A stretch of 63,899 nucleotides of DNA, the filler included. It is 5 parts of 5 records of this genome, joined end to end, with 100 filler letters (N's around TTAATTAATTAA, not from the genome) between each part and the next. Parts side by side here need not be neighbours in the genome. Positions count along the whole stretch, not along the records: positions 39,136 to 58,451 come from SRR31156797_6383; 4 more parts are not named here. The stretch is one strand, 5' to 3'. Shown here one piece after another: positions 7,543 through 58,451 of the stretch; within the stretch, counting starts at the first letter, position 1; each line of letters begins with the position of its first letter. Both the position numbers and the translations under genes were made by a program. Below the pieces are notes generated by a model that saw only the letters and a list, made by a program, of their open reading frames with translations, had not been told where the DNA came from and did not search any database.

Positions 7543-7550
7543 TATCTTCT

Positions 7551-39135: not shown

Positions 39136-39136
39136 G

Positions 39137-39256: not shown

Positions 39257-39371
39257 GTGTTTTTGTTGGGATTTTTTTCAAAGCTAGGGAATCTGAAAAA
39301 GACAAGGGATCAATTCTTTCTTTATCACATTTATCTTTCGTTATGGGGTCTTTTATTTAAAGGAAATTTTT

Positions 39372-40604
39372 TTGCCTGTATTTGAATATAAAGCATTAAA
39401 CGGGGACGGTAGAAAAATATCAGGTATCCTGGATGCCGACAGTAAAGCGACAGCTACCCGGAAATTGAAAGCTCAATCTTTATACCCGTTTAATCTCTAT
39501 AAGTTGGAAGCATCCAAGCCCAGGGAACAAAGTCGTATCAAAGGGCAGAGATTCTTTAACCTTTTTTCGCGGATTGGATTTGCAGAGGTTGCCATGATTA
39601 CCCGATTATTGTCGACTTTAATATCTGCCGGCTTTCCATTAATCGATGCTGTGAGCGCGGTTGCAAAACAGACCGACAATAGGGCCTTTCACCGCGTTTT
39701 ATCCCAGGTAAAGGATAAAATTGAACAAGGAAACAGTTTTTCAGAGGCCTTGTCCGTGTATCCGGGTGTTTTTTCTTCGGTTTACATCAATATGGTTGCC
39801 GCTGGCGAGTCTTCGGGGACTCTAGATATTGTTTTAGAAAGACTGGCAGATTTTGCAGAGAACAGAGAAAAAACACAAAAAAAAATAGGCGCTTCCCTGG
39901 CCTATCCGATCATTATGGCTTTAATCGGCGCCCTTGTTCTCACCATCCTTATGATATACATAGTGCCAGGGATCGTTTCTATCTTTTCGGATATGAATCA
40001 TGATTTACCCTTACCCACAATAATTCTGATTTCCATTAGTGATTTTTTTATTTCATTCTGGTGGGCCGTATTGGCTTCTCCACTTGTGATGACGCTGATT
40101 ATTTACGGAATCCGTCAAACGAAAAAGGGCCTGTTAATAACGGACCGGCTCGTATTAAGGCTGCCGATTGCAGGACCTTTGATGCAAAAGCTGGTGGCGG
40201 CAAGGCTTTCAAGGACCCTGGGTTCCCTTTTGGAAAATGGGGTTCCCATGTTAACGGCTTTGAAAATTTCTAAAAATGTGGCTGGCAACAAAATCATATC
40301 AAATTTGATTGAAACTGCTGCAGATAAGGTTGAAAAGGGGGGAGAACTTGGCAATGCTTTGACCACTTCTCCATATTTTCCCGGGTTGGCAATTCAAATG
40401 ATTCAGGTAGGGGAAAAGAGCGGCAAGATGGAAGGTATGCTGAAAAAAACAGCAGATCTTTTTGACAATCAGGTTGAATCCTCCATTACTGCAGCCACAG
40501 CTCTCATTGAACCCATGATCATTCTGTTCATGGGAGTCGTTGTGGGGCTCATCATTATGGCCATATGCCTGCCCATTGTCGAGATTAACCAAATCATTGT
40601 TTAA
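39372..40604 (+). CDS. gspF: Type II secretion inner membrane platform protein F
   Basis: MPVFEYKAL start; AGESSGTLD, SLAYP, VGEKSG and LIEP motifs; two T2SSF repeats. Confidence 0.93.
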   Translation: MPVFEYKALNGDGRKISGILDADSKATATRKLKAQSLYPFNLYKLEASKPREQSRIKGQRFFNLFSRIGFAEVAMITRLLSTLISAGFPLIDAVSAVAKQTDNRAFHRVLSQVKDKIEQGNSFSEALSVYPGVFSSVYINMVAAGESSGTLDIVLERLADFAENREKTQKKIGASLAYPIIMALIGALVLTILMIYIVPGIVSIFSDMNHDLPLPTIILISISDFFISFWWAVLASPLVMTLIIYGIRQTKKGLLITDRLVLRLPIAGPLMQKLVAARLSRTLGSLLENGVPMLTALKISKNVAGNKIISNLIETAADKVEKGGELGNALTTSPYFPGLAIQMIQVGEKSGKMEGMLKKTADLFDNQVESSITAATALIEPMIILFMGVVVGLIIMAICLPIVEINQIIV

Positions 40605-40608
40605 TCCG

Positions 40609-41559
40609 TTAAAAGGAATGGTTCAGCGTCAAGACATAAGAATTGTTCACAGGATTAATCCGGGCACTCAACCCAAAACTTTGATTCAAAATTTTTATTT
40701 GTTGAGACCTGTTATATTTATGGGCGGATGAGATAGATCCATAGATATTACCGGCATAGAATCCCGATTCAACAAAGGTGATAATGCCCCCTAAGGCGGG
40801 ATTGTCTTTGTTGAACGCATCATAGGCCGCATACATTAAGCCGGCATTAAGGCAGAATGTAACAAAGGCATCCTTATATCGTTCACAGTACAAAAATCCG
40901 CCTCCGGGGATGATCGCAAGGATTCCGGACAGGGCAGGGCTCTTGGCCGGAGCCTCTTTGGCATGGGCTATGGTGTCCAGTTGGGCAGGGATATTATATT
41001 CATCTTTGCTATCCGGGCTGATCATGGTTAAATATTGTTCGGCCTCATCTAGGCCGGCTTTGTTTAAATTCCGGAATTCCCTGATATGGATACGGGCCAG
41101 TTCCAAGTAGATTTTATCTTTTGTTTTGGTATCCTTGGTTAATTTCAAATAGTTTTGAAGCACCAATTGGGCATATCCGGCATTGCCCATGGCTAGAAAC
41201 GATTTACTCTGCATAAAATAGGATTCCCGGATAAATGAATTTTCATTTCCGGCTTCACGTATCAAGGTGTTAAAAAGGCGGGCGGCATCATTGAACTGAT
41301 CTGAATGGTACAATGATACGGCCGCTTTGAATTTTGCTTCTTCTGTTCGAGAATGATCCGGGAAAAAATGGGCAAAGCGTTTAAACTCGACCTGGGCTGT
41401 CATATAATCTTGTTCCCGGAACAATTTGTCCGCATATGAAAATTGGAGCCCGGGAGTTATAACCAGGCCGGGCAGTGGCCCGGCAACAGCATACCCATGC
41501 CCCAAAAGCGTCAGCAGAAAAACAATTAACAAAGGTTTGGATGTATTAAATGGGGTCAT
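40609..41559 (-). CDS. Exported TPR protein with C-terminal hydrophobic (TM2-like) region
   Basis: Signal peptide; TPR-like helices (EFKRF, A..K.A..LY); KSPALSGILAIIPGGGFLY motif. Confidence 0.7.
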   Translation of the reverse strand: MTPFNTSKPLLIVFLLTLLGHGYAVAGPLPGLVITPGLQFSYADKLFREQDYMTAQVEFKRFAHFFPDHSRTEEAKFKAAVSLYHSDQFNDAARLFNTLIREAGNENSFIRESYFMQSKSFLAMGNAGYAQLVLQNYLKLTKDTKTKDKIYLELARIHIREFRNLNKAGLDEAEQYLTMISPDSKDEYNIPAQLDTIAHAKEAPAKSPALSGILAIIPGGGFLYCERYKDAFVTFCLNAGLMYAAYDAFNKDNPALGGIITFVESGFYAGNIYGSISSAHKYNRSQQIKILNQSFGLSARINPVNNSYVLTLNHSF

Positions 41560-41939
41560 TGAGCCGGCGTGTCGGTGGTTTTTGTGTTGTCAAACCACCA
41601 GAAATCATTATGGCTGACAGGGTCAAACACATATTCATTATTTTTGATCCGGATGCGGGATGAAATATCAGCCTCATCCCTTCCGCAACGGACCAAACGG
41701 TCACAAGCCATTATCCAGCCAAGGGCCAGGCCGTGTTTTTTGATTGCCCGGTCAGCGTATTCTGAACAGGAGGGTGTCATGGGGCATCTGCCCCCGTCTG
41801 CCGCAGAAATGTGAGACTGATAAAACTCTATGAAAAAGTTCTTCGATGGCTTGTCCTCTGCCGCGGCCGGTAAGATGATACTAGTCATCAGCATTGAACT
41901 TAAAATCAAAAGAACGGGCAATTTAATTTTGGGTAACAC
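41556..41939 (-). CDS. YidD-family (membrane insertion efficiency / haemolytic domain) protein with signal-like N-terminus
   Basis: FYQSHIS, CPMTPSCSEY, AIKKHG and DRLVRC motifs. Confidence 0.8.
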   Translation of the reverse strand: MLPKIKLPVLLILSSMLMTSIILPAAAEDKPSKNFFIEFYQSHISAADGGRCPMTPSCSEYADRAIKKHGLALGWIMACDRLVRCGRDEADISSRIRIKNNEYVFDPVSHNDFWWFDNTKTTDTPAQ

Positions 41940-43608
41940 GAAGGACCTCCGCTATGGTTGTGATGCCTTGACGAACTTTTTCCAGGCCGTCCTGCCTTAA
42001 AGTCTGCATCCCTTTTTTTATGGCCGCATCTCTGATCACATTGGAATCCGAGGTTGCCAGGATTATGTTTTTCAACTCATCATCCAGATCAATGATTTCA
42101 AAAATGGCCTGTCTTCCTGAATATCCGGTATTAAAACATGCGGAGCAGCCGCCGGCCTTGTATACGGTTGTTCCCACCAATTGTTCTCCGGTTTCACCTA
42201 AGGATTTTACATCCTCGTATTTAAGCTGGTTTTTTTCACGGCAGTTTGTACACAGAACCCTGACCAGCCGCTGGGCTATTATGGTATTCACAGAGGAACA
42301 TATCAAATAAGGCTCAATACCAAGGTCAACCAGTCGCGTGACGGCTCCGGGCGCATCGTTGGTATGAAGGGTGGAAAACACCAAATGCCCTGTCAGGGCG
42401 GACTGAATTGCGATTGTTGCTGTTTCGATGTCCCGGATTTCCCCAATGAGGATGACATCCGGATCCTGCCGGACAATGGATTTCAGCCCCTTGGCAAAGG
42501 TGACGCCGGTTTTGGGGTTAACCTGTATTTGCCCGATCCGTTCTATGTTGTATTCAATAGGATCCTCAATGGTGATGATGTTTTTATCGGGAGAATTAAT
42601 TTCCGACAGCCCTGCGTAAAGGGTGGTTGTTTTTCCGCTTCCCGTCGGACCTGTAACAAGAACGATGCCGTGGGTCTGCCTGATAATCGTTTTTAAATGG
42701 GACAGCCTGGCCCGGGGCATTCCGAATTCAGACAATGAGAGAAGAGAGCCGGATTTGTTGAGCAGTCTCATTACCAGCCGCTCTCCAAATTCCGTAGGGA
42801 CTGTGGAAATCCGTAAATCGATTTCCTGGTCTCCTATTCTGACCTGGGCCCTGCCGTCCTGGGGGACTCGTTTTTCCGCGATATTCATTCCCGCCATCAC
42901 CTTAATTCTTGAGATGAGCGCGCTTTGGACTCCCTTGGGAGGGTGGAGTGTTTCATACAGGAGTCCGTCAATCCGATATCGGATTATCACCTGGTCATGA
43001 AACGGTTCAACATGAATATCACTGGCACTGGCTTTGACCGCCTGGGAGATCATATGATTTACCAGCCGGATCACCGGGGCATCACTGGTGTCGTCCAGAA
43101 GGTCCTCTATTTCTCCGATGTCCTCAAAGGAGGTCAGTTCATTGTCTTCCATATTTTCAACCAGTTGGCGGGCCTGGTCTTCAGAATGGTCATAAAAGGC
43201 GTTGATTGCAGATAAGATTTCCTGTTTAGGCGATAGGATTAATTTATAATCCTTTTTTTTCAGTATATGCATAAGATCATCGGGAGGACTAAGATCCGAA
43301 GGATCATTCACGGCTATTGCAAAAGCATTCTTCTTATGTGCCGGTACCAGACAGTATTTTTTAAGAAAGGATTTTGAAACCTGCCGGGTCCACTCTTTTT
43401 TTGGGGGGATTGAAATGGCCGGAGAATAATCAATGTTGTAGACCCCGGCCAAAGCCGTGAGAACGGAATGTTCAGACACCAGCTTGGATTTAACGGCCGC
43501 TTTGGTTAACCGGGTTCTGTTGTCCAACAGCAGATTGAGCAGTTTCTCCTTGTCTGCCCCGGATAAAGCCTCTTTTTCGGAAATGATGGTAACCAGTGTT
43601 TCTATCAT
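41923..43608 (-). CDS. gspE: Type II secretion ATPase E
   Basis: ASDIHVEP, GPTGSGKTTT, TIEDPIEY, RQDPDVILIGEIRD, STLHTND and a tetracysteine motif. Confidence 0.95.
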   Translation of the reverse strand: MIETLVTIISEKEALSGADKEKLLNLLLDNRTRLTKAAVKSKLVSEHSVLTALAGVYNIDYSPAISIPPKKEWTRQVSKSFLKKYCLVPAHKKNAFAIAVNDPSDLSPPDDLMHILKKKDYKLILSPKQEILSAINAFYDHSEDQARQLVENMEDNELTSFEDIGEIEDLLDDTSDAPVIRLVNHMISQAVKASASDIHVEPFHDQVIIRYRIDGLLYETLHPPKGVQSALISRIKVMAGMNIAEKRVPQDGRAQVRIGDQEIDLRISTVPTEFGERLVMRLLNKSGSLLSLSEFGMPRARLSHLKTIIRQTHGIVLVTGPTGSGKTTTLYAGLSEINSPDKNIITIEDPIEYNIERIGQIQVNPKTGVTFAKGLKSIVRQDPDVILIGEIRDIETATIAIQSALTGHLVFSTLHTNDAPGAVTRLVDLGIEPYLICSSVNTIIAQRLVRVLCTNCREKNQLKYEDVKSLGETGEQLVGTTVYKAGGCSACFNTGYSGRQAIFEIIDLDDELKNIILATSDSNVIRDAAIKKGMQTLRQDGLEKVRQGITTIAEVLRVTQN

Positions 43609-45581
43609 TTTGTTTTCCCGGTATTTTTTTGTCCTAGCGTATCAATTTTTTTAAAAAGACTGACCTCTCCTTTTTTGATGCTCGGTTTTAGGGATTCCTT
43701 TTTTGCATCGTATAGTTGTTTTGCTTCGGTGGGGTTTTTGATGACTCTAGGGGTTAGAAAAACATAGAGATTTGTCTTTTCTTCACCTTCATTTACGGTT
43801 TTAAAGGCCCATCCGAGACCGGGCAGATCTCCAAGGCAGGGGGTTTTATTTTCCGACCGGGTCAGGGTTTCGTCTATAAGCCCTCCGATTACAACCGAAT
43901 GGGAATCTTCTACAATAATAGTGGTTTCAATTTCACGCTTGAAGGTTGTCGGGCGGTCCGGACTGCTTTGATTGACAGTATCAAGTTTAGTGAGCTTCTG
44001 GTACACATCCAGCCGAACCAGTCGTTCTTTGGAAATCTGGGGCGTAATTTTCAGGCTGATTCCCACATCTTTGTATTCATACGAACTATAGGTCTCTGAT
44101 GATGATTCTGCAGCAGATCTCGTCTGGTAGGGGACGTTTTTGCCCACGGAAATCACGGCTTCTTCATTTTCCGTGGTCAAAATTTGGGGGGTGGCAAGGA
44201 TATTCACGTCTTCGTCGGATTGAAACGCATTTACAACAGCCTGAATATCCGGGAATGTGACCCCTCCGATATTGAAACTTTTACCCATAACTCCCAAAGA
44301 GAACCCCTTGGGCAGACTACCGTCGGAAGCAACGCCGCCAATATTGGCGTATCCGCTGTCTCCTGTACCGCCAAATCCCCCAAAGCCCACTTTTTCACCA
44401 CCGCTGAAAGATTGAGAGGTTTTCCATTCTGTTCCGATATTTAACCCTTTGGTGACGTTCACTTCCATAATAAGACACTCTATGAAAACCATGGCTCTCG
44501 GGATATCCAATTTGGCAATCACATCTTCCAACACCGGATAGTCTTCTTTCTCTGCCATGATGATCAATGAATTGGTTGCCTTGTCCGCATTGATATGCAC
44601 TGTTTGAGAAAGAATGGGGGCTTGTTTTTTCCCGGTTTTTTTATTATTTCCGGTTTTAGTCGGGATCTGTTGAAGCACCTTGACCATTTCTTCCGCAATA
44701 GCGTGTTCAAGATAATATACCCGGATGCGTTCTTCCCCTTTTGGTACCTGTTGATCCAAAAGAGCGACCAATTTTGTGATCCGCTCTGTCTCAACCTTTG
44801 ATGCAAGAAGAATGACGCTGTTTGTCCGTTCGTCTGCGGTAAGGTGGACCATAAGGTTTGAGTCCTTTTTCCCTTTTTCCTCTTTAACCCTTGCTGCAAA
44901 TACCGCAGAAAGGGTTTTAACAAGCTTTTCAGCATTGGCATTACGGATGGGAATAATGGAAATTTTTTTGCCGATATTGGGAATGTCAATGGAGCGGATT
45001 ATTTTAAGAAGCCTGTCAATGCTGGACAATGTCGCTGTCACAATCAGCATGTTGGTATCTTTGTAGGACAGCATAATACTGCCTTTGGGTAAAAGCGGCG
45101 CCAGCAGCGTTTTAAGTTCTCCCGAGTCCGCATATTCCAGGGGAATAAGCCTTGTAACCATCCTGTCTGCCGCTGTTTCCGGGCCACCGACAACCCGGGT
45201 GTCGATATTGTCTGACTTTGCGCTGGGAGCCGGGACTATTTTTATTACTTTTCCGGATGTCACCGTTGAAAAACCGTGGATTTCAAGCACGGATTCAAAT
45301 ACCTGAAACGCTTCTCCAATGGATATTTTCGTCGGTGAAATGACGGTAACCTTTCCTTTTACCCGGCTATCCAATACAAAATTTTTTCCGGTGAGCTTAC
45401 TGATGAATTTCACAAAGACCTTAATGTCCACGTTGTCGAAATCAATGGATATCCTGCCTTGGGCGGGCGCTTTTTCACATTGACCGGGGGCGGGATCAAG
45501 CAATATGCAGAAAGCCGGTAAAATCGTTAAAAGTATCAGAAAAGCAGAATGTTTTGAGAGCAAACTACGAAAACCGTGCAT
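43605..45581 (-). CDS. gspD: Type II secretion secretin D
   Basis: N0-N3 domains (DERTNSVI, DKATNSLII); secretin motifs PQILTTENEEA and PCLGDLPGLGWAF. Confidence 0.95.
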   Translation of the reverse strand: MHGFRSLLSKHSAFLILLTILPAFCILLDPAPGQCEKAPAQGRISIDFDNVDIKVFVKFISKLTGKNFVLDSRVKGKVTVISPTKISIGEAFQVFESVLEIHGFSTVTSGKVIKIVPAPSAKSDNIDTRVVGGPETAADRMVTRLIPLEYADSGELKTLLAPLLPKGSIMLSYKDTNMLIVTATLSSIDRLLKIIRSIDIPNIGKKISIIPIRNANAEKLVKTLSAVFAARVKEEKGKKDSNLMVHLTADERTNSVILLASKVETERITKLVALLDQQVPKGEERIRVYYLEHAIAEEMVKVLQQIPTKTGNNKKTGKKQAPILSQTVHINADKATNSLIIMAEKEDYPVLEDVIAKLDIPRAMVFIECLIMEVNVTKGLNIGTEWKTSQSFSGGEKVGFGGFGGTGDSGYANIGGVASDGSLPKGFSLGVMGKSFNIGGVTFPDIQAVVNAFQSDEDVNILATPQILTTENEEAVISVGKNVPYQTRSAAESSSETYSSYEYKDVGISLKITPQISKERLVRLDVYQKLTKLDTVNQSSPDRPTTFKREIETTIIVEDSHSVVIGGLIDETLTRSENKTPCLGDLPGLGWAFKTVNEGEEKTNLYVFLTPRVIKNPTEAKQLYDAKKESLKPSIKKGEVSLFKKIDTLGQKNTGKTK

Positions 45582-45589
45582 ATTGTTAT

Positions 45590-46441
45590 CTATTCCTTTT
45601 GTCCGCTGTAAACAAGTTCATGGGACCGTCCCCTTCTGAACATTGAAATCCGGATGTCCGATTCAGAATCAAGGTTGAGGGAGTGAAGGTCATGGGCGGT
45701 TTTGATTTTTCTGCCGTTTACACCCTCTATAATATCTCCGTTTTTTATGCCAAGTGCTTCAATCTCAGATCCCGGACGTATTCCGTAAATCAACACCCCG
45801 GCAGGTACTCCCTTCTTCAGGTAAGGCCTTGCCTTCATGGTTCCCATCAGTTCGTTTATATTTGATTGTGTTCCTTGGGCAAGAATTTCGGATGGTGGAT
45901 CAGGGGGGGGGGCGGCCGTGCTCACAGCCCCCTGAGCAGGAGGAGGGGCGTCTGCTGTATTGGCTTCGAGGATTTGATCCTTTCCCCTTACATTCAGCAC
46001 AACCTGGTTTCTGGTGATTTTTTTAATCTCAGCTCCCTGAATTCGATCCCCGACCTTGACCAGAGACTGGTTATGGTTGGCTTGATCCTCAATTACCGCC
46101 CAGCTGTCCGATGTGGTTTCTCCTGCCGCCGTCCCCCAAAGTATCAGTCTTAATTTGGTTTTTTCCGGTTTGGATTTAACCGGTTCCATGGCTTTATTAA
46201 TTGAGGATCTGTTTGTGGCCGCCTTGAAAAGGTTCCGTTGGAGAATGGAACCCATCTGTTTTTTTTCCGGATGTCTGCTGCTGACTTCCGCAGTCTTACC
46301 CGGGTTGGAATCCTGTGTCCGGATTTTTTGCTTTGCCATTGCATATTTGAAAGAAGGGGCGTCCGGGCGAATGAATTCAATCCCCTGGAATACAACAAAC
46401 ACCGCAAGGCCTATATTTAATCCCAGTAACAAGGCCTTCAT
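45590..46441 (-). CDS. gspC: Type II secretion protein C (HR + PDZ)
   Basis: N-terminal TM; LWGT..AVIED HR domain; PDZ-like LGIKNGDII; positioned before gspD. Confidence 0.85.
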   Translation of the reverse strand: MKALLLGLNIGLAVFVVFQGIEFIRPDAPSFKYAMAKQKIRTQDSNPGKTAEVSSRHPEKKQMGSILQRNLFKAATNRSSINKAMEPVKSKPEKTKLRLILWGTAAGETTSDSWAVIEDQANHNQSLVKVGDRIQGAEIKKITRNQVVLNVRGKDQILEANTADAPPPAQGAVSTAAPPPDPPSEILAQGTQSNINELMGTMKARPYLKKGVPAGVLIYGIRPGSEIEALGIKNGDIIEGVNGRKIKTAHDLHSLNLDSESDIRISMFRRGRSHELVYSGQKE

Positions 46442-46977
46442 ATTTTTTTCCCCTTTGGGGTCAGTGTCTGGACTTCAATAACAGCGTCCAGAAATTTTTT
46501 TTCTTTACCGGATTTATCAAGCAAAAGATAGGTTATACGGATCCCTTCTTCCGACTCCACCTTTTTTAAAAAAATTAAAAACTCTTTGAGTACAATTTTC
46601 TTGAGTTTGAGTTTTACAGAAGACAGGTCATAATCGCTGTTTTTTAAAATTTTTTTTGAGGGCTGCATATAGTCGATATTATTTTTAATGCCAGTGCCCG
46701 AAGTTTGCTGGTCTATAAAAGAAAACAAGGTGAATTTTCGGTCCCGTTTTTGTATGAAACCACTATCTTTGTCCGGGGAGGGCTTAAGGCTCCGGTATTC
46801 TTTTTCCAGAAGCCGGATTTTATCCAAGGCTTCTATTTTTGCCGCCAATACATTTTGCAGATCTGCCTTCTGGTCGTAGGCAGGCAGATAAATGAACTGA
46901 ACAACAATAAAAACAAGAAAGAAAAATCCACCGCCCAGCACCGTTATTTTTTCCCTTGAAGAGAGTCTATCCATCAT
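46438..46977 (-). CDS. gspM: Type II secretion protein M
   Basis: LSSREK followed by a TM and coiled coil; positioned after gspL. Confidence 0.78.
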   Translation of the reverse strand: MMDRLSSREKITVLGGGFFFLVFIVVQFIYLPAYDQKADLQNVLAAKIEALDKIRLLEKEYRSLKPSPDKDSGFIQKRDRKFTLFSFIDQQTSGTGIKNNIDYMQPSKKILKNSDYDLSSVKLKLKKIVLKEFLIFLKKVESEEGIRITYLLLDKSGKEKKFLDAVIEVQTLTPKGKKI

Positions 46978-48428
46978 AGCTCCACGATAAATTTAAACCG
47001 GACATGATGACCGGTTTTATCCGATTTGGCACTGTTTATATTGACGGTTTTGAAGCCAGGGGCCTTTTCCATAAGGCTTTTTATTTTATCCACATCATTA
47101 AAATTTGTTGTGCTGCCGGTTATAACCAGTCGATTATTGTTGAATCCCAACCTTGTTATTTCCATATCGATTGGTGGCGGAATCCGGCTGGACAAATCAG
47201 AGAGTATTTTTAAAATGCCCGTGTGATTATTGGCCCGCCATGCAATGTCTTCCGCCGAATTTGTTTTTCCTTCCCTGGCTTTTTTAACTTTGGACTCCAT
47301 AAAAAGTAATGGCGCCTGGATTGGTTTCCGGTGGGGCCGGGGAAAGGTCTTTTCATAAACGGCAACGGCCTCTTGATGAACCTGGGAGATATTTTCCTTT
47401 AAAACAACAGTTTGACGGTGGAGATGGGCAAGGTTTAAGCTAAAAATCATAAACACCAGGCAGGTAAGGGTCAAAAGCCTGTTTTTGTGCCGCCCGAAAA
47501 AAGAATCTGCCCTATAGCGTCCAACACAAAAATTAAACATAAACGGCAGGGAAAGGTTTAAGTTTTTGGGCCAGAGTTCCATCTCCTGTGTTTCCATAGC
47601 CCCGGCAAACCTTATGTCATGATTGGCTGACGCCACTGCCTTATGAATCTGCTCCTGTATAACCTGACAATTTCCGGGAACAGAGAATTTTATATCCAGG
47701 GCGGTAAAGACCTTCTTGTTTAAGCCGGCCCGGATGTCGGCACCGGCCAGGGTCCTGTGGACTGCTTCAACCAATGCCGGATAATCAATCTGTGAACCGT
47801 CGGGCCCCTTAATAAAACCAGCCAGAGATCTTATGACCAAAGGCTGTCTGTCAATGATCAAAGTCAGCGTGGTCTCCTCCGGGGCCATATGGACGTGGAG
47901 TATATTCGTTAACTTTCTTTGGTCTGCCAGCAACGCCATTGCATGTGTGCATCCCCTCGGTATCATCATCTTTGGGGAAATTTTCCGGGATGCCAGGCCT
48001 GAAAAAATCTCTTCTACTCTTTCTTCTGCCAGGCTGCCGGACAGAACCAGGGATTGGTCTTTTTTAAACTGCAGGTTGAGAATATGAAAGTCCAAGAGCG
48101 TTTCGGTTTCAGGAAAAGGATATGATGATTTAAGTTCAAACGACAGGACCTTCTCAATCTTTTTTTTATGATTAAACGGAAAGCTGTTATGCCTGAACCA
48201 TACCCAGGAGGACGGAATCGTCACAAGGGCGTGATCACACCCCGACAAACGATCCTCTTCAAATAGATGGGCCAGTGCACGTTGGAACAACGAAGAGGTG
48301 TGTGCCTCATCTTCGCCTGATAATGTGTCGTAGTCTATGACAGAAAACGGACCGATTGATCCGGCAGTTCCTAGGGCTGCCGATATGCCTGTGTCATAAA
48401 TATTTAGGTATAAACAGGGCTTTGCCAC
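46974..48428 (-). CDS. gspL: Type II secretion protein L (PilM/PilN-like)
   Basis: Cytoplasmic actin-like region (FPFNHKKKIEKVLSFEL), TM, and PilN-like C-terminus. Confidence 0.8.
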   Translation of the reverse strand: MAKPCLYLNIYDTGISAALGTAGSIGPFSVIDYDTLSGEDEAHTSSLFQRALAHLFEEDRLSGCDHALVTIPSSWVWFRHNSFPFNHKKKIEKVLSFELKSSYPFPETETLLDFHILNLQFKKDQSLVLSGSLAEERVEEIFSGLASRKISPKMMIPRGCTHAMALLADQRKLTNILHVHMAPEETTLTLIIDRQPLVIRSLAGFIKGPDGSQIDYPALVEAVHRTLAGADIRAGLNKKVFTALDIKFSVPGNCQVIQEQIHKAVASANHDIRFAGAMETQEMELWPKNLNLSLPFMFNFCVGRYRADSFFGRHKNRLLTLTCLVFMIFSLNLAHLHRQTVVLKENISQVHQEAVAVYEKTFPRPHRKPIQAPLLFMESKVKKAREGKTNSAEDIAWRANNHTGILKILSDLSSRIPPPIDMEITRLGFNNNRLVITGSTTNFNDVDKIKSLMEKAPGFKTVNINSAKSDKTGHHVRFKFIVEL

Positions 48429-50636: not shown

Positions 50637-51096
50637 ATCCTTTAATGATTTCTACATTTGCAAAGAAAGGATGAAGCTTTAAGGTAAATTCTTCATCCCC
50701 GGATCTCATCTGAATCAAGGCCATGTCCGAGTAGCCCTTATTGTAAAAACGTATGACGGTCTCTTCGGGGGCGTTTTGGCCTTTTACCTCAATGTGGTCG
50801 ATGGATAAATTTAAAAGCGGCTCTCTTTTTTGGGGTGTAATGTTGAGACTTTCCTGGCTGTCTTGGGTGATCCAAACCTCTCCGGACAACTGGTCAATAT
50901 GGAGTAAAAAAGTTTTGTTTTCCTGAATGGCTTTTTGTTTAAGAGACGCCATCAGTTCAGAGATGGTCCGGTGGCCATCGACAGTACTTTTTATATTTAA
51001 ATACGGAACCGCCCCAAAAGCTGCAATCGATAAAATGGTCAGTACCACCAATAGTTCCAGCAGGGAAAATCCGGATATGTAACCGTTTTTATTCAA
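50611..51096 (-). CDS. gspH: Minor pseudopilin H
   Basis: Class III signal G|FSLLELLVVL; gene order. Confidence 0.82.
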   Translation of the reverse strand: MNKNGYISGFSLLELLVVLTILSIAAFGAVPYLNIKSTVDGHRTISELMASLKQKAIQENKTFLLHIDQLSGEVWITQDSQESLNITPQKREPLLNLSIDHIEVKGQNAPEETVIRFYNKGYSDMALIQMRSGDEEFTLKLHPFFANVEIIKGYVFFDDCI

Positions 51097-51532
51097 GCTC
51101 CCAGCTTTTAATGTCTAAGTTCTTCCCCTGGCCGCCCGGCGCTCCGTCTGCTCCATAAGACAGGATATCAAATTCACCGTGCGTACCAGGCGATATATAT
51201 AAATAATCACGGCCCCAGGGGTCTTTGGGCAGCTTTTTTTTATCCAGGTATCCGTTTTTGCTCCAATTGTGCGCTTCAGGTTCCGTCCCTGGTTTTTCGA
51301 TCAAGGCTAGAAGCCCCTGCTCACTGGACGGATACGTTCCATTGTCTAAGCGGTACAGCTTCAAACTTGTTTCAAGCGCAGCAATGTCCACCTTTGCTTT
51401 AACCGTTTTTGCCTCATCGGTCCTCCCCATATACCGGGGAACTATCATCCCGGCCAGGATACCGAGAATCACCACTACAACCATTAATTCTATAAATGAA
51501 AACCCGTCTTCATTTATTGCTGCCGGTCTCAT
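51089..51532 (-). CDS. gspG: Major pseudopilin G
   Basis: G|FSFIELMVV; YPSSEQGLLAL, DPWGRDY and SYGADG motifs. Confidence 0.95.
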   Translation of the reverse strand: MRPAAINEDGFSFIELMVVVVILGILAGMIVPRYMGRTDEAKTVKAKVDIAALETSLKLYRLDNGTYPSSEQGLLALIEKPGTEPEAHNWSKNGYLDKKKLPKDPWGRDYLYISPGTHGEFDILSYGADGAPGGQGKNLDIKSWELE

Positions 51533-51642
51533 AAAATTTTCCTTAAGCTATTAATTATGGAGGAAGGCTGTGAAGGAAAGACTCAGCCCTGTCCATCCGA
51601 AATATTAATGATAATTGGTGCTATTGATTAGTACAGGCACAG

Positions 51643-51835
51643 ATAAAAATCAATCAGGGATTCCCATTAATTCAATATTTTTTTGATCTTCAAGGGATTT
51701 TCCTGATTGGCGTTTCTTTTTTTCCATTTCAGTCCCAACGGGATTGTCAATATTTTTTTTAAAATAAAAGTTTCGTAATTTTAGTGGGTTGAGAAAAAAG
51801 AGCGAAAACTAAGGGAAACCCTGATTGATTTTTAT
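51643..51835. promoter_or_regulatory. Mirror-image 23-bp sites in the divergent intergenic region
   Basis: ATAAAAATCAATCAGGGATTCCC (51643-51665) matches the reverse complement of GGGAAACCCTGATTGATTTTTAT (51813-51835) at 22/23; partial copy AAGGGATTTTCCTGATTG at 51692-51709. Confidence 0.75.
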
Positions 51836-51956
51836 TTTTGGGCGTAATAGTTAAGCACTCTGCCAGGATTAATTATAGTTCGGCATGAGGTATTATAAAC
51901 AATTGTTGTATTACTGATTTGATGTTGACTTGAATGATGAAATAAGGAGTAACAAG

Positions 51957-52427
51957 ATGAAATTATTGACCAAATGGATGGCAGGGATTTTCTTTGTTTG
52001 TGTGACAGCAACAGCTGCCTTGGCCCAGGACGGCGGGATTACCATAGATGCCAACGGAAATACGGGAGTCGGAACCGAAACGCCAACAGCAACGCTGGAC
52101 GTCAACGGTGATACAAAGATACAGGGCGATTTGACCATGACAGGTAAAGTAAAGCAGTCCCAGGCTCCGGCCGAGGGCAATGACCTTGTTAATAAATCCT
52201 ATGTCGATGCCGCAGATACGGTAAAATTCAATGCACTTCAGTCTCAAATAAACTCTATTGCAAATGGCGTGTTAGGCCCTGTAAAAGGTCGTCTCAAATG
52301 TACAAGCGGGTACAAACCTTTTGGTATTACCCACGGATGTTACACATATACTTTATGTATAAAACCGGGGTATTGGCATAGCTATCGCAAGCCAAGATGT
52401 GGCAGCGGAGGAGGAAGCGGTAAATAA
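51957..52427 (+). CDS. Small secreted fibre/adhesin-like protein
   Basis: AAGGAG SD; signal peptide ending ALA|Q; GNTGVGTETPTATLDVNG and NDLVNKSYVD motifs; 4-Cys C-terminus. Confidence 0.75.
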   Translation: MKLLTKWMAGIFFVCVTATAALAQDGGITIDANGNTGVGTETPTATLDVNGDTKIQGDLTMTGKVKQSQAPAEGNDLVNKSYVDAADTVKFNALQSQINSIANGVLGPVKGRLKCTSGYKPFGITHGCYTYTLCIKPGYWHSYRKPRCGSGGGSGK

Positions 52428-52549
52428 AACCGATTTCCGGTCTTTATTTGTTCATATAATCCGGCATCGAATTTATTTGAATCCCTGTTGGAGATGTGTA
52501 GTTTGCCGATTAAAATTCCATTGACTGTCGTATTCTTAGAGGAACGTCT

Positions 52550-53611
52550 ATGTGTGCCAGGTTGCCCAGCTTTTTGATCTGTTTTTTGTTTTCATGTTAT
52601 CCGGTTTTTGCCCAGGACCTTATATTGACCGGCCCGCAGACTTCGGGATGGCAGTATATCGAAAACCGTATATTGTCCCGGGGTGACACCCAAATCGGTG
52701 ATGGGATTGATCTGGATTTGATGTCCAAAACAGGGGTGAGGTTGGCGCCTGGGTTTAAAGTTCTGCCGGGTGGGGTTTTTAAGGCCTTTGTCAGCCCGGA
52801 CAGCGACGGGGACACCATCCTTGACCTGGCAGAAAAGCGTTCCGGGTGCATGAATCATCTATCGGCGGATACCGACGGGGACGGACTGGCGGACAATGAA
52901 GAAGACACCAACGGCAACGGTCGCCATGAGATGGAATTCAACGAAACCAGCGCCTGCAAACTGGATACCGACGGGGATAATATCGGAGATAAGTGGGAAA
53001 TAGACAACGGGTTTAATCCTTTGGTGCCCGATGCGGACCAGCATTTGATTTTGACGGGTAGTCCTGCCTCCGGCTGGCATTACATTAACGGTATCATAGT
53101 CTCCAAAGAGGCCACTACCATTAATCCGGGCGTTTACCTCGATCTGGTCGCCCAGGTCCGGGTGAAATTCAATCCGGGCTTCAGAGTATTGCCCGGGGGG
53201 AGGCTCAGGGCTGTAGCAAGTCCGGACTCTGATGGTGACCGTATTCATAACATCGTGGAACGGCGGTCCGGCTGCATGAACCCCGACCTTGAGGACACTG
53301 ACGGCGACGGCCTCCCCGACAGCCAGGAAGATGCAAACCGCAACGGCATCCTTGAGGAACTGAACGAAACCAGCCCCTGTAATGCAGATACGGACGGAGA
53401 TAAGATGAATGATAAGTGGGAAAAGGACCATGGCTTGGATCCCCTGGTCGATGACGCCGGCCTGGATGCGGACAATGACGGATTGACCAATTACCTGGAA
53501 TATTATTTCAAGGTTTCCGACCCCCAAGACCCCGACAGTCTTCCACCCAGAGGTTCCTATTACGAGTATGACGAATTGGGCCGAATCAAAAAAATAGTCC
53601 GTATCAAATAG
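52550..53611 (+). CDS. Secreted protein with two 142-aa repeats (beta domain + DxDGDG Ca-binding repeats) and a C-terminal YD repeat
   Basis: Signal ending VFA|Q; PGFKV/PGFRV motifs; many DTDGDG/DSDGD motifs; ends YYEYDELGRIKKIVRIK. Confidence 0.85.
   Translation: MCARLPSFLICFLFSCYPVFAQDLILTGPQTSGWQYIENRILSRGDTQIGDGIDLDLMSKTGVRLAPGFKVLPGGVFKAFVSPDSDGDTILDLAEKRSGCMNHLSADTDGDGLADNEEDTNGNGRHEMEFNETSACKLDTDGDNIGDKWEIDNGFNPLVPDADQHLILTGSPASGWHYINGIIVSKEATTINPGVYLDLVAQVRVKFNPGFRVLPGGRLRAVASPDSDGDRIHNIVERRSGCMNPDLEDTDGDGLPDSQEDANRNGILEELNETSPCNADTDGDKMNDKWEKDHGLDPLVDDAGLDADNDGLTNYLEYYFKVSDPQDPDSLPPRGSYYEYDELGRIKKIVRIK
52616..53457 (+). repeat. Intragenic tandem duplication with 426-nt period
   Basis: DLILTGPQTSGWQYI at 52616 aligns with HLILTGSPASGWHYI at 53042; SPDSDGD, RSGCMN and NETS.C..DTDGD are shared. 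Confidence 0.9.
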
Positions 53612-53629
53612 ATCTTTCAGGAGTCGAAA

Positions 53630-56600
53630 ATGAATACGCTGGTATCTGCACTCTCAAAATGGATGGTTTCTCTTCTCATTTTCCTTCTTATTATTATTCC
53701 CGCACGGGCCGGGGCGGATGATGCCGGAACCGGTTATGGCGATGTTGCTGTGGAATTGGTGGAAGAGGATTTGTCGGAACAGGGATGGATTGAAGACATA
53801 GAAAGCACGGGCGAAGAAGAGGAAAAAGACCCTGGAGAGGGTGAGGCGGCACCGGAACGCCTATTAAAACCTTCGGCCATGGAAGCGGCCGCTCCCATGA
53901 TGGCGGAGGCGTCACCAGAACCAGAACCGCCCAGCCTTGAAGAATCCGTCTTTGACACAGGTGCCACTATTACCGTTCCGGAAATTTCCGTGGGCATCGG
54001 GGCCGCTGTTCTGGAATACCCCATCCAGGTGCCGGCGGGCCGGAATGGCCTGACACCGGCGGTAATACTCGGCTATAATTCTTCCAGAAGAAACAGCAGG
54101 GCCGGGGTTGGCTGGGACCTGGGCATCTCTTCCATCAAGCGTTCCATTAAGCGGGGAACATGCTATACCTGCAATAATTTTACCTACAACGGCGAAGAAA
54201 TATTTCCGGTCAGCGTGGACTCCAGCGGATACGGCACCTATCGACCGGAGAAACAGCAGGCCTTTTCTATCATTGAATTCAACACCGATAATTCCTGGTC
54301 GGTCACCTTTAAAGACGGTACCGTCTATGAATTCGGCCCTGGCCCGGAATGCCGGCAGGACAACGGCCAAGGTACATTCCAATGGCTGCTGTCAACCGTA
54401 AGGGATTCTAACGGCAACACCTTGACCTACACTTACGCCAAAGACCATGACCAGGTATATCTGTCCATCATCCGATACCTCAATTATTACACCCTCTCTT
54501 TTTATTATGAAAGCAGGCCGGATCAGATTATTGATTACCGTTCAAAATTTAGAGTGGTGACGGCCAAACGCCTTAAAACCATAGAGGTTCGTTCCAACGA
54601 TCATCAGATCCGGGCCTATGATCTGGCCTATACCCAAAGCGCCAATACCGGGCGCTCCCTTCTGACCCGGATCACCCGCTACGGATCGGATTATTATCTG
54701 GATGGGGAGAACCAGATTACCGGGGGATCAGCCCTGCCGTCTACGGAAATAACCTACGCCCACGACCAGACTCCCTTTGCCGCCTCCCCGGAAAAAATAT
54801 CGGATCTGTCCAAAGGACAGCATTTTTTCAATACCTATATCCATCCCATGGTCACCGGAGACTGGAACGGGGACGGCCGCATGGATATAGGCCGGGCCGG
54901 TGCTGACGGCATTGATTTTTATATCTCCGGCAAAAACGGTTTCCAGACCATGGATTCCCTGTCCGACCTGTCCGTTGGTCAGGGATACCCAAATGCCAAT
55001 GCAAGCCCCGTCCTCACCGGAGACTGGAACGGAGACGGGAAAACCGATTTAGGCCGGTCCGGTAGTTCCGGGATCATCTTTTATACAGCCAAAGGTGCCG
55101 GCTGGGAGAGATATCCAAAGCTGAATCACCTGTCCGGATACCAAGGGTATAAGAACCAAAGCTCATTTCCGGTTTTCACCGGGGACTGGAACGGAGACGG
55201 GAAAACCGACATGGGCAGAGTCACGTCAAATGCTGCGGTCTTTTATGTTTCCACCGGCAGCGGCTGGCGGCGTTATAGCGGATTCTCTGACCTGGCTGCT
55301 CAGCAGGGCTATATCAATATCAGCGACCACCCGGTTTTTACCGGGGATTTTAACGGAGACGGCAGAACCGATGTGGCCCGGGTAAGCAATACGGGGATTA
55401 AGGCCTACACATCAACAGGAACCGGGTTCCGATATTACGGGACCCTATCCGCCCTGAGCGCCCAACAGGGGTTTCATAACCAAGGTGTGTTCCCCCTTGT
55501 CACCGGCGACTTTAACGGTGATGGGATGACGGATATTGCCCGGGCCGGTTCGAACCAGATTCTTACCTATCTGTCTTCAGGTAGCGGATTTATCAAAGGC
55601 GGCCGGATAAATGACCTGACCTGGAGCCAGGGATGCAGAAATTACAATACCCATCCAATATTCACGGGGGATTTTAACAACGACGGGCGCATAGATATCG
55701 GCCGGGTCAAAGAGGGTTCCCTGGCCATTTATGTGTCAACTGGTAAGGGCTTTACCTCTTACAAAAACCCTGGCTCCAGACTCAGTCCGGCCCAGGGGTT
55801 TGCCACCAATCATGAATATCCCCTTGTCACCGGGGACTTCACCGGTGACGGCAGAACCGGCATTGCCCGGGCATCGGCCTCAGGGGTTTGTTTTTACTCC
55901 CCCCAGGGGGATGCCGATGACCTGATGCACCGGATTTCAGCCTCGTCGGGCAGTATCACCGACATTGAATACACCCCCTCGTCGAACTGGGCCAATATTC
56001 GTCTGCCCATGTTGCTTCAGACAGTGTCAAAGCGGACTGTAAACGACGGCCTGGGCAATACCTCTGCCACCGAGTATTCTTACTCCGGCGGCTTTTACGA
56101 CTATGAAGACCGGGAAGTGAGGGCCTTTGAGTCCGTGATAAAAATCAATCCCGAAGGTACTATAGAAACCCGGTTATTCCACCAGGACAGGTTCCTTGAC
56201 GGTCGTAAAATAAGCACCGAATACAAATCCCCGGACGGCACCCTGCTGTCCAAGATCGAACATAACTGGGAGAGCACCCCATACGATAGCCGCACGGCAT
56301 TTATCCGGCTTAATTCTCAAAAGGAGACCCAATACGACAACGGAAACCAGTCGTTCCGGCAAGAGGCGTATACCTATGATCCGGAGCATGGCAGTATCTT
56401 GACCTCCACGGTGTCCGGCACCAACCTTACCGACTCCGTCACCATGAGTTACGACTATGACTACTACGGATCCGGCCAGAGTTACCCCCTTTGTATCATT
56501 CGAGAAACTCTCACAGGCGCTGCCGGCATGGTTCGCCAGACCCTTTACGCCCATGAGCTGCACTCAGGGAATATGCTCTCCCGGGAACAGGTCAATGCCG

Positions 56601-58451
56601 GCGGCATTAACCCTGTCACCACCTATTCCTATGACAGCCACGGAAATCTCGTCTCACTCCGGGACCCCAAAGACAATGTTTATTTCTTTGAGTACGATTC
56701 CGCTATAGACACCTGGCCGGTGCGCATTGAAAAGCCCTCCACGGGAATCCACACCCATGTGGTCCGATACCCGGATATCGATCTTCGGTTCGGCAAGCCC
56801 CTTTCTTTTGAAAATGAGAATGGCTTCCAAACGGTGTACGCTTATGATGTTCATGGAAGACTAACCCGATTGGACCATCCGGACAACGGCCAGGAAAAGT
56901 TTATATTTGACGATGAATCTATGCCTAGGTCCCAGACCCGGCGGGTCAAGGAAAGTGATGACGCCTTCATTGACACAGTCACCTACACCGACGGCCTGGG
57001 CCGCACCGTCCAGACCGTGGCAAAATCCAAGGAAGGCTACGCAGCAACCCTGTTCACCTTTGATCTCATGGGACGGGAAGCCTGTACCAAAGGGCCTTTT
57101 TTTATACCTTCCCCTGCATTTTTATCTGCCGATCATACCAGCCTGTCTGCCGATCCCGGCACCGTCAATGCCGGTGCCATCACGACCTGGGTGAGAAATT
57201 ATTATGATTACAAAAGCCGGATCACCAGACTGGAACAATCCGGGGGGATTGATACGCTTTTTGTCCACAATAATCTCAACATAACGGTCACCGACCCGGA
57301 CGGCCACAGCAAATCCCAGGTACTGGATATCCTGGGCCGGGTCATTAAGGTTATTGAGCACGGCCCCAGGGACTTTCCCGTCACCTATAGCTATACACCG
57401 GCAGGGGACCTGACAAAGGTCTCCCGGACCAACCCGGCCACGGGCAATCCCATTGACAACATCGTGGTCTACAACACCCTGGGCCAGAAAATCTCCATGA
57501 CGGATCCGGACATGGGGCAATGGCATTATACCTATGATTTAAACGGCAACCTTGAAACCCAGACCGACGCCCGGAACATCACCCTGACCTTTGCCTACGA
57601 TGAGCTGAACCGCCTCGTCCGCAAAACCTATCCCGACACCAGCTTTGCCTCATGGGCCTATGACTCAGGCACCAATGGTACAGGCCAGCTCTACGAGAAG
57701 TCCAATGCCAATGCCGTCACCCGGTATACCGCCTATGACCCGGCAGGCCGCCTCCAGTCAGAAATCCGGACCGTTGACGCCCAGACGGTGAAATTCGACT
57801 ATACCTGGGACATTGCCGGACGCCCGGCGTCAAAGGCCGTAACCTACAATAACACCCCCTTTAAAGCCCTGGCCTATGAGTTTTATCCCGGCACCCGCCT
57901 CCTGGCCCGGGTCAAACAGGAAGACAACCGGTCCGTCACCGAGATCACCCAGTACACGCCCCAGGGCAAAATCGTATTCCTGAACCATTTAAACGGAACA
58001 ATTGCCAATTATATTTACGACTATGCCACTTCACGTTTGATCCTGATCCATTCCTACAATCTCAGTGAAACCATCATGGACAAGGGCTATACCTATACCA
58101 AAGCCGGGGATGTAAAGACCGTTACGGACAACCGGACCGATACAACCCGCACCTATGCCTATGACCATAACCACCGCCTCATCTCCGAGCAGACATCCGG
58201 CGCCGGTGCCGCGGCCGGAACCCGTGTGCAAGTCATTGACCTTAGTTATGGAGAGGCTCCGGGGCAGCCCGTACATGCCCCAAAAGAAGTCCGGATCAAC
58301 GGAGCCCTGACCGAGTATGCCTATACGGCAGCGGGTAACAGATCCTTTAAAAATCAAGGAATAACCGCTACTAATTACGACTCAAATCCCGACAATATGA
58401 TCTCAAAGATATCTGCCGGCAGCACTGAGACCCTATTTTTCTATGATGCGG
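53630..58451 (+). CDS. Secreted SpvB + FG-GAP propeller + RHS/YD repeat protein (TcB-TcC-like fusion), 3' truncated
   Basis: Signal ending ARAGA; SpvB motif PIQVPAGRNGLTP..LGYNS...GVGWDL; seven GD(W/F)xxDG repeats; YSGGFYDYEDRE midN-like motif; YD repeats (DPDMGQWHYTYDLNGNL, YDELNRL). Confidence 0.92.
54800..55900 (+). repeat. Seven 54-aa beta-propeller blade repeats
   Basis: Repeat anchors at 54853, 55015, 55177, 55339, 55501 and 55663 (162-nt period) and 55828 (+165). Confidence 0.92.

Follow-up and report, generated by a model that had tools for sequence, protein, structure and literature searches.

A TcdB/TcaC-like toxin module and a type II secretion cluster lie head-to-head on a Desulfobacter-like contig, probably as neighbours rather than as one machine

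A type II secretion system (T2SS) cluster and a TcdB/TcaC-like toxin module that diverge from a shared intergenic region are, in our assessment, two separate units side by side, neighbours rather than one dedicated machine. We put this reading at about 60%, because the module and the gsp genes are usually apart in relatives. Both lie on a single 19.3-kb metagenomic contig (positions 39136-58451), which comes from a Desulfobacter-like organism of an anaerobic lineage and is one of five contigs, with N spacers between them, that make up the window (the whole stretch of DNA analyzed, 63,899 nt). Two gene blocks face each other head-to-head, the gsp side on the minus strand and three genes for signal-peptide proteins on the plus strand. 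This layout, gspGHIJKLMCDE(+F) against three signal-peptide genes, had been proposed by a sequence-only reading of the locus and was borne out by Pfam and NCBIfam matches and by the arrangement of the ORFs.

The contig was confirmed by reads of run X1; because this run probably represents the source sample, the confirmation is not independent. The first bases (39136-39257, plus strand) are the 3' end of an ORF of a multi-copy element, whose frame stays open until the stop codon at 39254-39256. The 2264-nt Logan record 1 covers 39136-39216 and extends past the contig start, at a depth of 107 versus 19.1 for the main contig. At the other end, 58451 is the final base ahead of the spacer (N, TTAATTAATTAA, N). 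According to the run X1 reads, both contig ends enter repeated sequence from which there was no usable extension; branch points in the assembly graph fall near position 57472 and at the end of the contig.

The gsp genes constitute a bona fide, apparently complete general T2SS cluster, in the series gspG-H-I-J-K-L-M-C-D-E, a YidD-like gene, a TPR gene and gspF. The major pseudopilin gene gspG (51089-51532; PF08334 1.4e-42; TIGR01710 177.6 bits, cut-off 88.85) opens the minus-strand block and is followed on that strand by the minor pseudopilin genes gspH (50611-51096), gspI (50223-50636) and gspJ (49538-50233), each with an N_methyl motif and the last with PF11612 in its homologs, and by gspK (48429-49541; PF21687 53.2 bits, PF03934 24.5 bits). 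Next on the minus strand are a gspL-like gene (46974-48428), whose product has a PilN-type C-terminal domain above its cut-off (PF05137 23.3 bits) and a weak TIGR01709 match below it (27.8 bits, cut-off 65), and two genes whose products score above the Pfam cut-offs, namely gspM (46438-46977; PF04612 35.2 bits, cut-off 27.8) and gspC (45590-46441), with its HR (T2SSC) domain and PDZ matches (PF11356 1.1e-13). The same strand carries gspD (43605-45581), for an outer-membrane secretin with Secretin, Secretin_N and GspD N0 domains (TIGR02517 516.7 bits, cut-off 351.35), and gspE (41923-43608), for the secretion ATPase (PF00437 3.2e-140; TIGR02533 652.8 bits, cut-off 630.25). The inner-membrane platform protein GspF is encoded on the plus strand (39372-40604; PF00482 4.8e-66; TIGR02120 429.1 bits, cut-off 424), convergent to the remainder of the cluster. 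No prepilin peptidase GspO was found among the 16 ORFs of the contig.

Two minus-strand genes within the cluster had not figured in the earlier description. One encodes a YidD-like protein with a signal peptide (41556-41939; PF01809 8.6e-16), and the other a TPR (YbgF/BamD-like) protein with a signal peptide, an h-region score of 3.36 and a hydrophobic C-terminal part (40609-41559), recognized by weak YfiO and TPR_6 matches and by a tol_pal_ybgF match of 39 bits that is below the cut-off.

The divergent arrangement invites the view that the three secreted proteins belong together with the T2SS to one dedicated, co-regulated system, in which the secretin pathway exports or displays the Rhs cocoon. 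We consider this unlikely, although the head-to-head layout, the 424-bp shared control region (51533-51956, GC 0.33) and the Sec-export look of all three proteins speak for it. The mirror-image sites that had been noticed between the operons are present as two inverted copies of the 18-nt motif AATCAATCAGGGWTTCCC, at 51648-51665 (plus) and 51813-51830 (minus); they are putative regulatory sites, through which both operons may be co-regulated. These were the sole two matches in the window at three mismatches or fewer (0.30 expected; two were reached in 3 of 100 shuffles), for a pattern built from the very two sites on which it was then counted. Composition argues the other way, in that GC3 is unequal on the two sides: it is 0.62 in the accessory and RHS genes versus 0.42-0.55 in the 13 gsp-side genes, a shift of which part could stem from the unusual amino-acid make-up of RHS repeats.

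All three divergent plus-strand genes encode proteins whose N-termini resemble signal peptides, in line with the earlier claim, as judged by a heuristic rather than by SignalP. The hydrophobic cores of the proteins starting at 51957, 52550 and 53630 reached 10-residue Kyte-Doolittle maxima of 2.36, 2.44 and 3.52, versus 1.77 for the cytoplasmic GspE, and were followed by the predicted cleavage motifs ALA|Q, VFA|Q and ARA|G, respectively. The first gene (51957-52427, plus strand) encodes a small secreted protein of 156 aa that has a repeat motif like those of tail fibres and is rich in Cys in its C-terminal part. A search with this protein gave 8838 matches, mostly to a repeat within giant proteins, and the leads from an Atlas search were all below 0.9. 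The only matches of the full-length type were P0279 (query residues 1-149) and P0298 (residues 2-86), which are HUN04_12385 and HUN04_12405, each encoded directly upstream of an accessory gene.

That accessory gene (52550-53611, plus strand, in the window) encodes a secreted protein of 353 aa made up of two copies of a beta-rich '3-coathanger stack' and TSP3 calcium-binding repeats, with a YD-type hairpin at its end (GCX_COOH 28 bits, cut-off 26; CglD/MtsD TSP3 matches). Ten C-terminal positions were invariant in 13 sequences (Y338, Y340, D341, G344, R345, K347, I349, R351, I352 and K353), and the predicted structure (pLDDT 64.7) placed a hairpin at residues 336-351; compared with the PDB by Foldseek, this model had no match at E <= 0.001. 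Among 107 distant loci, a single one (L006:4491-4829) has, immediately before the RHS gene, a small ORF whose product ends in a YD hairpin, so this accessory type is clade-specific.

The third and largest gene (53630-58451, plus strand) joins SpvB, propeller, midN and RHS/YD regions in one chain, and Pfam domains supported this part of the sequence-only reading throughout. After the signal peptide comes an acidic linker, with 26 D and E among the 82 residues 29-110, then SpvB at residues 124-275 (56.4 bits, cut-off 22), an FG-GAP propeller of six FG-GAP_3 stretches (88.5 bits) in which we counted seven TGD[WF]N.DG repeats by eye, TcdB_toxin_midN at 735-848, and the RHS repeats of the shell (RHS_repeat 94.3 bits). 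The ORF breaks off at 'FFYDA', at the contig end; compared with the 1916-aa homolog P0001 it lacks about 310 residues. The C-terminal payload is cut off, as had been stated, and the RHS core is missing with it. A variable toxin tip and an immunity gene would be encoded downstream of 58451; no immunity gene was seen.

This protein belongs to the already described 'TcdB/TcaC' class of polymorphic toxins, which Table 1 of Zhang, de Souza, Anantharaman, Iyer and Aravind (2012, PMC3482391) characterizes by a signal peptide, SpvB, an integrin-like propeller and RHS repeats and records in delta-proteobacteria among others. The architecture is common to both, and the class also has a variable C-terminal toxin. 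Passages of that paper treat SpvB and the propeller as the export determinant itself, and describe no upstream YD-hairpin accessory, fibre-like first gene or gsp neighbourhood.

With the Tc BC proteins (TcdB-TccC, YenB-YenC) the window protein has SpvB, propeller, TcdB midN and RHS shell in common, with B-like and C-like parts joined in one chain; its residues 124-208 align to 35-120 of TcdB1 and 36-118 of YenB, and outside these first ~85 residues the likeness consists of profile matches only. It differs in its N-terminal signal peptide, in its small secreted partners and in its anaerobic, Desulfobacter-like lineage. Canonical TcB proteins are not known to have a signal peptide. The shell at residues 1222-1526 also matches solved chains of T6SS Rhs effectors (RhsA, Tse5, Rhs1-EagR and the Salmonella bongori Rhs protein; best 2.3e-13), and RHS core and variable tips are common to those effectors and the window protein's homologs, but the window protein begins with a Sec signal and a TcB-like part rather than a T6SS loading domain.

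The 16 ORFs scanned on the 19.3-kb contig gave no family match to TcA, VgrG, PAAR, holin or endolysin, as the letters had suggested, and neither an Eag chaperone nor any other T6SS feature was found there. TcA was likewise missing from 62 flanking ORFs of 15 related loci and from 34 ORFs of L080-L082. The evidence supports a Sec-signal-bearing, BC-fused Rhs protein within a polymorphic-toxin family, with no TcA on its contig. To this extent the proposal of a TcA-independent Rhs cocoon is supported; the dedicated T2SS pairing attached to it is not.

The small protein, the accessory protein and the SpvB-RHS protein form a self-contained, conserved three-gene module, which makes the two smaller ones concrete candidate partner proteins of the shell. 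One search returned more than 1100 homologs, and a signal-peptide-like h-region was present in 90 of the 120 listed. The best 7 of these 120 (45-73% identity) each have an accessory homolog on the same contig, as judged from contig-length fingerprints and accession order rather than from DNA. RHS and accessory accessions are consecutive in GY710 (..525, ..526), V6Z89 (..379, ..380) and HUN04, and one apart in WC836. In HUN04, the closest genome, the module is in tandem duplicate, in the order small protein (WDP90448), accessory (449), RHS (450), one gene (451), small protein (452), accessory (453) and RHS (454).

The homologs also bear on whether the large protein carries a toxin at all. It could instead be a teneurin-like adhesin or a payload-free surface shell, since the payload region falls outside the window, and both the TSP3 repeats and the fibre-like motifs are features typically seen in adhesion proteins. 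We regard this as highly improbable: all six full-length close homologs (P0001-P0005 and P0007) have a conserved RHS-core stretch followed by dissimilar C-terminal tips, that of P0002 being Ntox10 (155 bits), and the extra gene that the accession gap reveals after the first HUN04 RHS gene is in the place expected for an immunity gene.

The position of the module beside gsp is not conserved. In HUN04 the GspJ homolog WDP88820 is ~1630 protein accessions from the Rhs module. Of five contig-level tests for RHS near gsp, one was positive: on a 168.8-kb contig of the Desulfobacter MAG V6Z89, GspJ (MEH0021368) is 11 accessions from the RHS and accessory genes (..379/..380). This recurrence favours a dedicated system, and a lone T2SS that close to RHS is unlikely by chance (estimated at <1% per locus), but the V6Z89 gene order differs from that of the window. 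Module contigs of 11.8, 7.6, 48 and 166 kb had no GspJ among the 23 GspJ proteins that a word-based search, with misses possible, found in all. Conversely, 10 of the 12 related GspJ contigs of at least 10 kb did not agree in length with the contig of any accessory or RHS match listed.

At greater distance the picture was similarly mixed. In the phylum of G001, a secretin lay within -7/+13 kb at 4 of 92 SpvB loci versus 2.6-4.2 expected, a chance rate that counts against dedicated pairing in a test of little power, made in a different phylum with ~5.6 secretins per 2-Mb genome. A metagenome scan with generic FG-GAP patterns gave 78 loci, to which the distant locus L001 from a genome-contig scan was added (79 in all); 15 reach the SpvB region, and none is a close ortholog. 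In favour of linkage, the distant, high-GC locus L028 pairs gspD and gspF, in divergent orientation, with an SpvB gene whose product has a signal peptide, and L016, from the same lineage, retains a degraded secretin piece. Linkage is also seen in L080, where a secretin, a GspL-like gene, a 174-aa gene and SpvB-RHS follow one another with overlapping gene junctions, and in L082 (RHS, RHS, a 158-aa gene, GspD and GspE). The recurrence of the adjacency in relatives had been named beforehand as a test of a single conserved, co-regulated system. It recurs in V6Z89 and L028 and fails in HUN04, on the four module contigs, on 10 of the 12 GspJ contigs and across the 92 loci, and we conclude that the gsp and Rhs genes are probably not such a system.

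There are T2SS clusters in which an adjacent, divergently read gene does encode a substrate, as with pulA beside pulC-O in Klebsiella, and for this type functional pairing has been established by genetics. The window has in common with them a gsp operon head-to-head with genes of Sec-exported proteins; it differs in that its pairing fails the conservation tests and its candidate substrate is far larger than the T2SS substrates quoted in PMC10550240. In the passages of that source, T2SS substrates and the endopilus are ~55-60 Å, a width that the shell, at least 210 kDa, should exceed. The likely mismatch is a further argument against a dedicated T2SS; the passages searched gave no figure for the outer dimensions of Rhs or BC shells. 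Tc BC cocoons are roughly 90-100 Å. The library searched yielded no report in which export of an SpvB-RHS protein was shown to depend on a T2SS or T9SS.

The size of the shell also raises the alternative that it bypasses the secretin, assembling in the periplasm and leaving in outer-membrane vesicles or, in the manner of Tc toxins, when part of the population lyses, with the accessory and fibre-like proteins decorating it. PMC10847048 reports release of Yersinia entomophaga Tc toxins through lysis, a precedent that favours this route and weighs against a dedicated T2SS, and the module occurs without secretion genes in HUN04 and on short contigs. We nevertheless hold this scheme improbable: the 16 ORFs of the short contig gave no holin or endolysin family match, and release by lysis would not need Sec signal peptides on all three proteins. 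Furthermore, in 6 of 15 loci, Bacteroidota-like relatives encode a T9SS-signal protein immediately before the RHS gene, which suggests active secretion, at least of the partner. The same 6 loci count in favour of a dedicated secretion system, as a hint that members of the family make use of the Sec-dependent outer-membrane machine resident in their host.

If the cluster and the module are two neighbouring units, as we prefer, all three module proteins would cross the inner membrane via Sec. The shell would then fold in the periplasm and enclose its self-cleaved toxin tip in the way known from Tc BC cocoons and Rhs effectors, and the accessory protein would attach to it, perhaps with its YD hairpin lined up on an edge strand. 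Accessory and fibre-like proteins may replace TcA in surface attachment or target recognition, with competitors as the presumed targets of the toxin. For the outer-membrane step, we tentatively consider two options, the resident T2SS acting as a general rather than a dedicated exporter and, with like reserve, some other route altogether; lysis or vesicles seem only slightly less likely.

A more specific proposal, to which we give a low probability, is that an upstream-encoded adaptor docks on the Sec-exported SpvB-RHS cocoon and hands it, independently of TcA, to the Sec-dependent outer-membrane machine that a given lineage possesses. The adaptor would be the small T9SS-signal protein in the Bacteroidota-like loci (6 of 15 loci), and in Desulfobacteraceae the TSP3/3-coathanger protein with its YD hairpin (7 of 7 close homologs), there working with the T2SS. 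Were this true, the gsp neighbourhood in the window, V6Z89 and L028 would be a real, if loose, functional linkage, and these three are natural settings for checking the T2SS link. If that link fails, the window would show an unremarkable representative of a known toxin class beside a housekeeping secretion cluster. What is at stake is how signal-peptide-bearing, TcA-less Rhs/Tc-like shells exit diderm cells and locate their targets.

The contig that bears the gsp and Rhs genes spans positions 39136-58451 of the window (19,316 bases), and any absence from it is to be read as absence within 19.3 kb. Four spacers of the form N / TTAATTAATTAA / N (8232-8331, 30277-30376, 39036-39135 and 58452-58551) separate five contigs, which range in GC from 0.29 to 0.61 and are probably from different organisms in one metagenome assembly; the remaining four carry unrelated housekeeping genes. 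Sugar ABC transporters and GH38 lie on one window contig, and YbeY, DagK and NrdD on the 0.30-GC contig. The putative label 'Desulfobacter-like' for the organism with the gsp and Rhs genes derives from the names of its best protein matches. Its contig begins partway through an ORF, near the 3' end, in a high-copy element (39136-39257; Logan record depth 107 versus 19 for the contig, in the probable source run), directly upstream of gspF, and this element may be an IS or similar repeat.

The sequence-only reading had placed the gsp genes head-to-head with three genes encoding signal peptides, and every element it listed is present. The minus strand carries gspG, H, I, J, K, an L-like gene, M, C, D and E, followed by genes for a YidD-like protein and a TPR protein with a signal peptide, while gspF is on the plus strand, convergent with the remaining gsp cluster. 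GspD, GspE, GspF and GspG passed the curated NCBIfam equivalog cut-offs and the GspL-like protein fell below its own; the T2SS of the contig is ordinary. The YidD-like gene and the TPR gene (YbgF/BamD-like, with a hydrophobic tail) occupy 40609-41939 between gspE and gspF, both with signal peptides; such a pair is unusual within T2SS clusters and could conceivably act as a pilotin or in assembly. On the Rhs side, three genes on the plus strand begin at 51957, 52550 and 53630, and each product starts with one or two basic residues, then a hydrophobic core with a small-x-small site, a signal peptide call made with a crude hydropathy heuristic rather than SignalP. The gap between the two sides is 424 bp long and AT-rich (GC 0.33). 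The mirror-image sites reported there were recovered as an 18-nt motif present twice in inverted orientation, 147 nt apart, with no further match anywhere in the window; the chance estimate for this pair is generous because the pattern was defined from those same two sites.

The third ORF (53630) does join TcB-like and RHS regions in one chain, as first noted: SpvB, FG-GAP repeats, TcdB_toxin_midN and RHS repeats, before it meets the spacer at 'FFYDA'. With residues 1-900 as query, 1113 of 7998 scored proteins matched at E <= 0.001, from Desulfobacter, Nitrospirota, Myxococcota and many metagenomes, and most were about 1900-2400 aa with the same Pfam set. Among the matches listed, 90 of 120 homologs had a signal-peptide-like N-terminus by the heuristic, and several of the other 30 were truncated gene models. 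This SpvB-RHS architecture is already known: Table 1 of Zhang et al. (2012; PMC3482391) describes a 'TcdB/TcaC' trafficking class with a signal peptide, SpvB coupled to an integrin-like beta-propeller, and RHS repeats, and gives delta-proteobacteria among its phyla. Six full-length close homologs continue past the break in the window through a conserved RHS-core stretch and then end in mutually unlike C-terminal tips, one of which is Ntox10 (155 bits). Compared with solved structures, the N-termini of the Tc toxins TcdB1 and YenB match residues 124-208 of the window protein, and T6SS Rhs proteins match its shell region. Together, the homolog tips, structure matches and class definition mark the window protein as a BC-fused Rhs polymorphic toxin that carries a Sec signal, and about 310 of its residues lie outside the window. 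The assembly graph branches at ~57472 inside the RHS gene and again where the contig cuts the gene off, and in the probable source run a 243-nt record common to 57472-57516 has a depth of 80.6, with a terminal record at 27.7 versus 19.1; such branching would be expected if the conserved 3' stretch (57472-58451) is common to more than one RHS copy or strain, as the depths indicate.

Gene conservation points to the three-gene module of small protein, accessory and SpvB-RHS protein as the real unit. Homologs of the accessory (353 aa) lie on contigs of the same size as those of all seven best RHS homologs (6,044,721; 48,120; 168,838; 6,947; 11,839; 7,649; and 166,480), and the two genes adjoin by protein accession in the relatives GY710, V6Z89 and HUN04, with one gene between them in WC836; these neighbourhoods were deduced from matching contig sizes and accession order. 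Of the 8838 matches to the small first gene, only two are full-length-type relatives, both in HUN04 and each directly before an accessory gene, thus giving the order small-accessory-RHS, tandemly duplicated (WDP90448-WDP90454; P0279, P0265, P0001, P0298, P0121, P0264: small, accessory, RHS, one gene, small, accessory, RHS). The extra gene after the first RHS gene is likely an immunity gene. The accessory itself is a tandem duplicate of a two-part unit that is single in most relatives, with a beta-rich first part matching the NCBIfam '3-coathanger stack' and a second part of TSP3-type calcium-binding repeats. At its C-terminal end, 16 residues make up a YD-type motif that hardly varies across 13 sequences and that a mediocre model (pLDDT 64.7) predicts as a lone beta-hairpin; this hairpin would add to an edge strand of the RHS shell. 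The small protein has a repeat common to very large fibrous proteins and a Cys-rich C-terminal half. A full-text literature search found no published account of the conserved accessory with its terminal YD hairpin or of the fibre-like first gene, although the supplements of Zhang et al. (2012) may list such neighbourhoods.

Adjacency of gsp and RHS genes largely fails to recur in relatives. In V6Z89, GspJ is at ..368 and RHS and accessory are at ..379/..380, close but in an order unlike that of the window; by arithmetic on accession numbers rather than a read map, the numbering fits exactly accessory, RHS, one gene, gspF, TPR, YidD, E, D, C, M, L, K, J. Of the relatives, HUN04 is the closest (73% identity for RHS, 83-84% for the accessory), and its only detected GspJ homolog is ~1630 accessions from the Rhs module. 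The word-based search gave 23 GspJ homologs, 12 of them on contigs of at least 10 kb, and only the HUN04 and V6Z89 contigs also carried the module; the other 10 lacked it. GspJ matches were absent from the 11.8-kb and 7.6-kb module contigs, whose size would reach gspG-gspJ if syntenic with the window, and from the 48-kb and 166-kb module contigs; the 6.9-kb contig is too short to show linkage. The accessory and RHS genes have a GC3 of 0.62, compared with 0.42-0.55 for genes on the gsp side and 0.43 for the small gene; the GC3 shift, the assembly depths and the branches in the assembly graph count as further evidence that the two sides are separate.

Among 79 distant loci (78 from a metagenome scan plus L001), 15 reached the SpvB region, and at one of these, L028, an SpvB gene with a signal peptide diverges from gspD and gspF. 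A locus of the same lineage, L016, represents a decayed form of the L028 arrangement: at 7526-10130, adjoining an SpvB/FG-GAP gene, a transposase is flanked by remnants, namely the frameshifted N-terminal part of a secretin and a stray piece of RHS shell. A wider test centred on the genome of L001 covered 301 genomes of its phylum, 72 of which had SpvB matches at 92 distinct loci, each scanned from -7 to +13 kb with T2SS proteins. Secretins lay near 4 of the 92, and two more loci had E, F or G-type genes only, where per-genome secretin counts predict 2.6-4.2 loci by chance (P = 0.26-0.61); the test is weak because genomes in that phylum are small with many secretins each, and it gives no support for general gsp-RHS linkage. 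At L080 (G173:C56, 365-13208, minus strand), a TPR gene, a 181-aa gene, a secretin, a PilN/GspL-like gene, a 174-aa gene, SpvB-RHS (2180 aa) and a 146-aa gene are co-oriented with overlapping or near-touching junctions, resembling an RHS gene that ends a secretin operon. At L082 (G168:C6), two full SpvB-RHS genes are directly followed by a 158-aa gene, GspD and GspE. L080 and L082 are striking singly, yet they occur at the background rate. The genome of L082 also holds a tandem SpvB-RHS array (G168:C1:463865-484224) with four SpvB matches ~6.6 kb apart.

Folded periplasmic proteins have the T2SS as their generic route. Published figures for its substrates and endopilus are ~55-60 Å (PMC10550240), and the Tc toxin of Yersinia entomophaga is released by lysis (PMC10847048). 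An Rhs shell, at 210 kDa or more, should be wider than the T2SS scale. A dedicated, co-regulated T2SS-Rhs system, as the sequence-only reading proposed, has the arrangements in the window, V6Z89 and L028 on its side; against a secretin route stand the size of the shell and the lysis precedent, and we consider such a system unlikely. Use of the T2SS as the route of the Rhs protein across the outer membrane is a somewhat better prospect, though still a doubtful one. The full-text literature search turned up no demonstration that SpvB-RHS proteins depend on a T2SS or T9SS. In six of the 15 distant loci (L006, L015, L032, L036, L037 and L063), all Bacteroidota-like, a gene 4-71 nt before the SpvB-RHS gene encodes a small protein (148-424 aa) whose C-terminus is a T9SS sorting domain, Por_Secre_tail. 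The first gene encodes a fibre-chaperone (Peptidase_S74) in L032 and DUF3244 in L036 and L037, and in L006 a 112-aa ORF ending in a YD-like motif lies between the T9SS-signal gene and the RHS gene. This layout parallels the three-gene order of the window and is suggestive for the outer-membrane step.

The analysis shows which genes are present, that their products start with signal-peptide-like stretches, that the module is conserved and that homologs differ in their tips. If it behaves like the Tc BC and Rhs proteins of known structure, the shell protein would be exported by Sec, fold in the periplasm around its self-cleaved toxin and be used against competitors. The conservation of the accessory and small protein suggests that they may be structural partners replacing the missing TcA in attachment or targeting.
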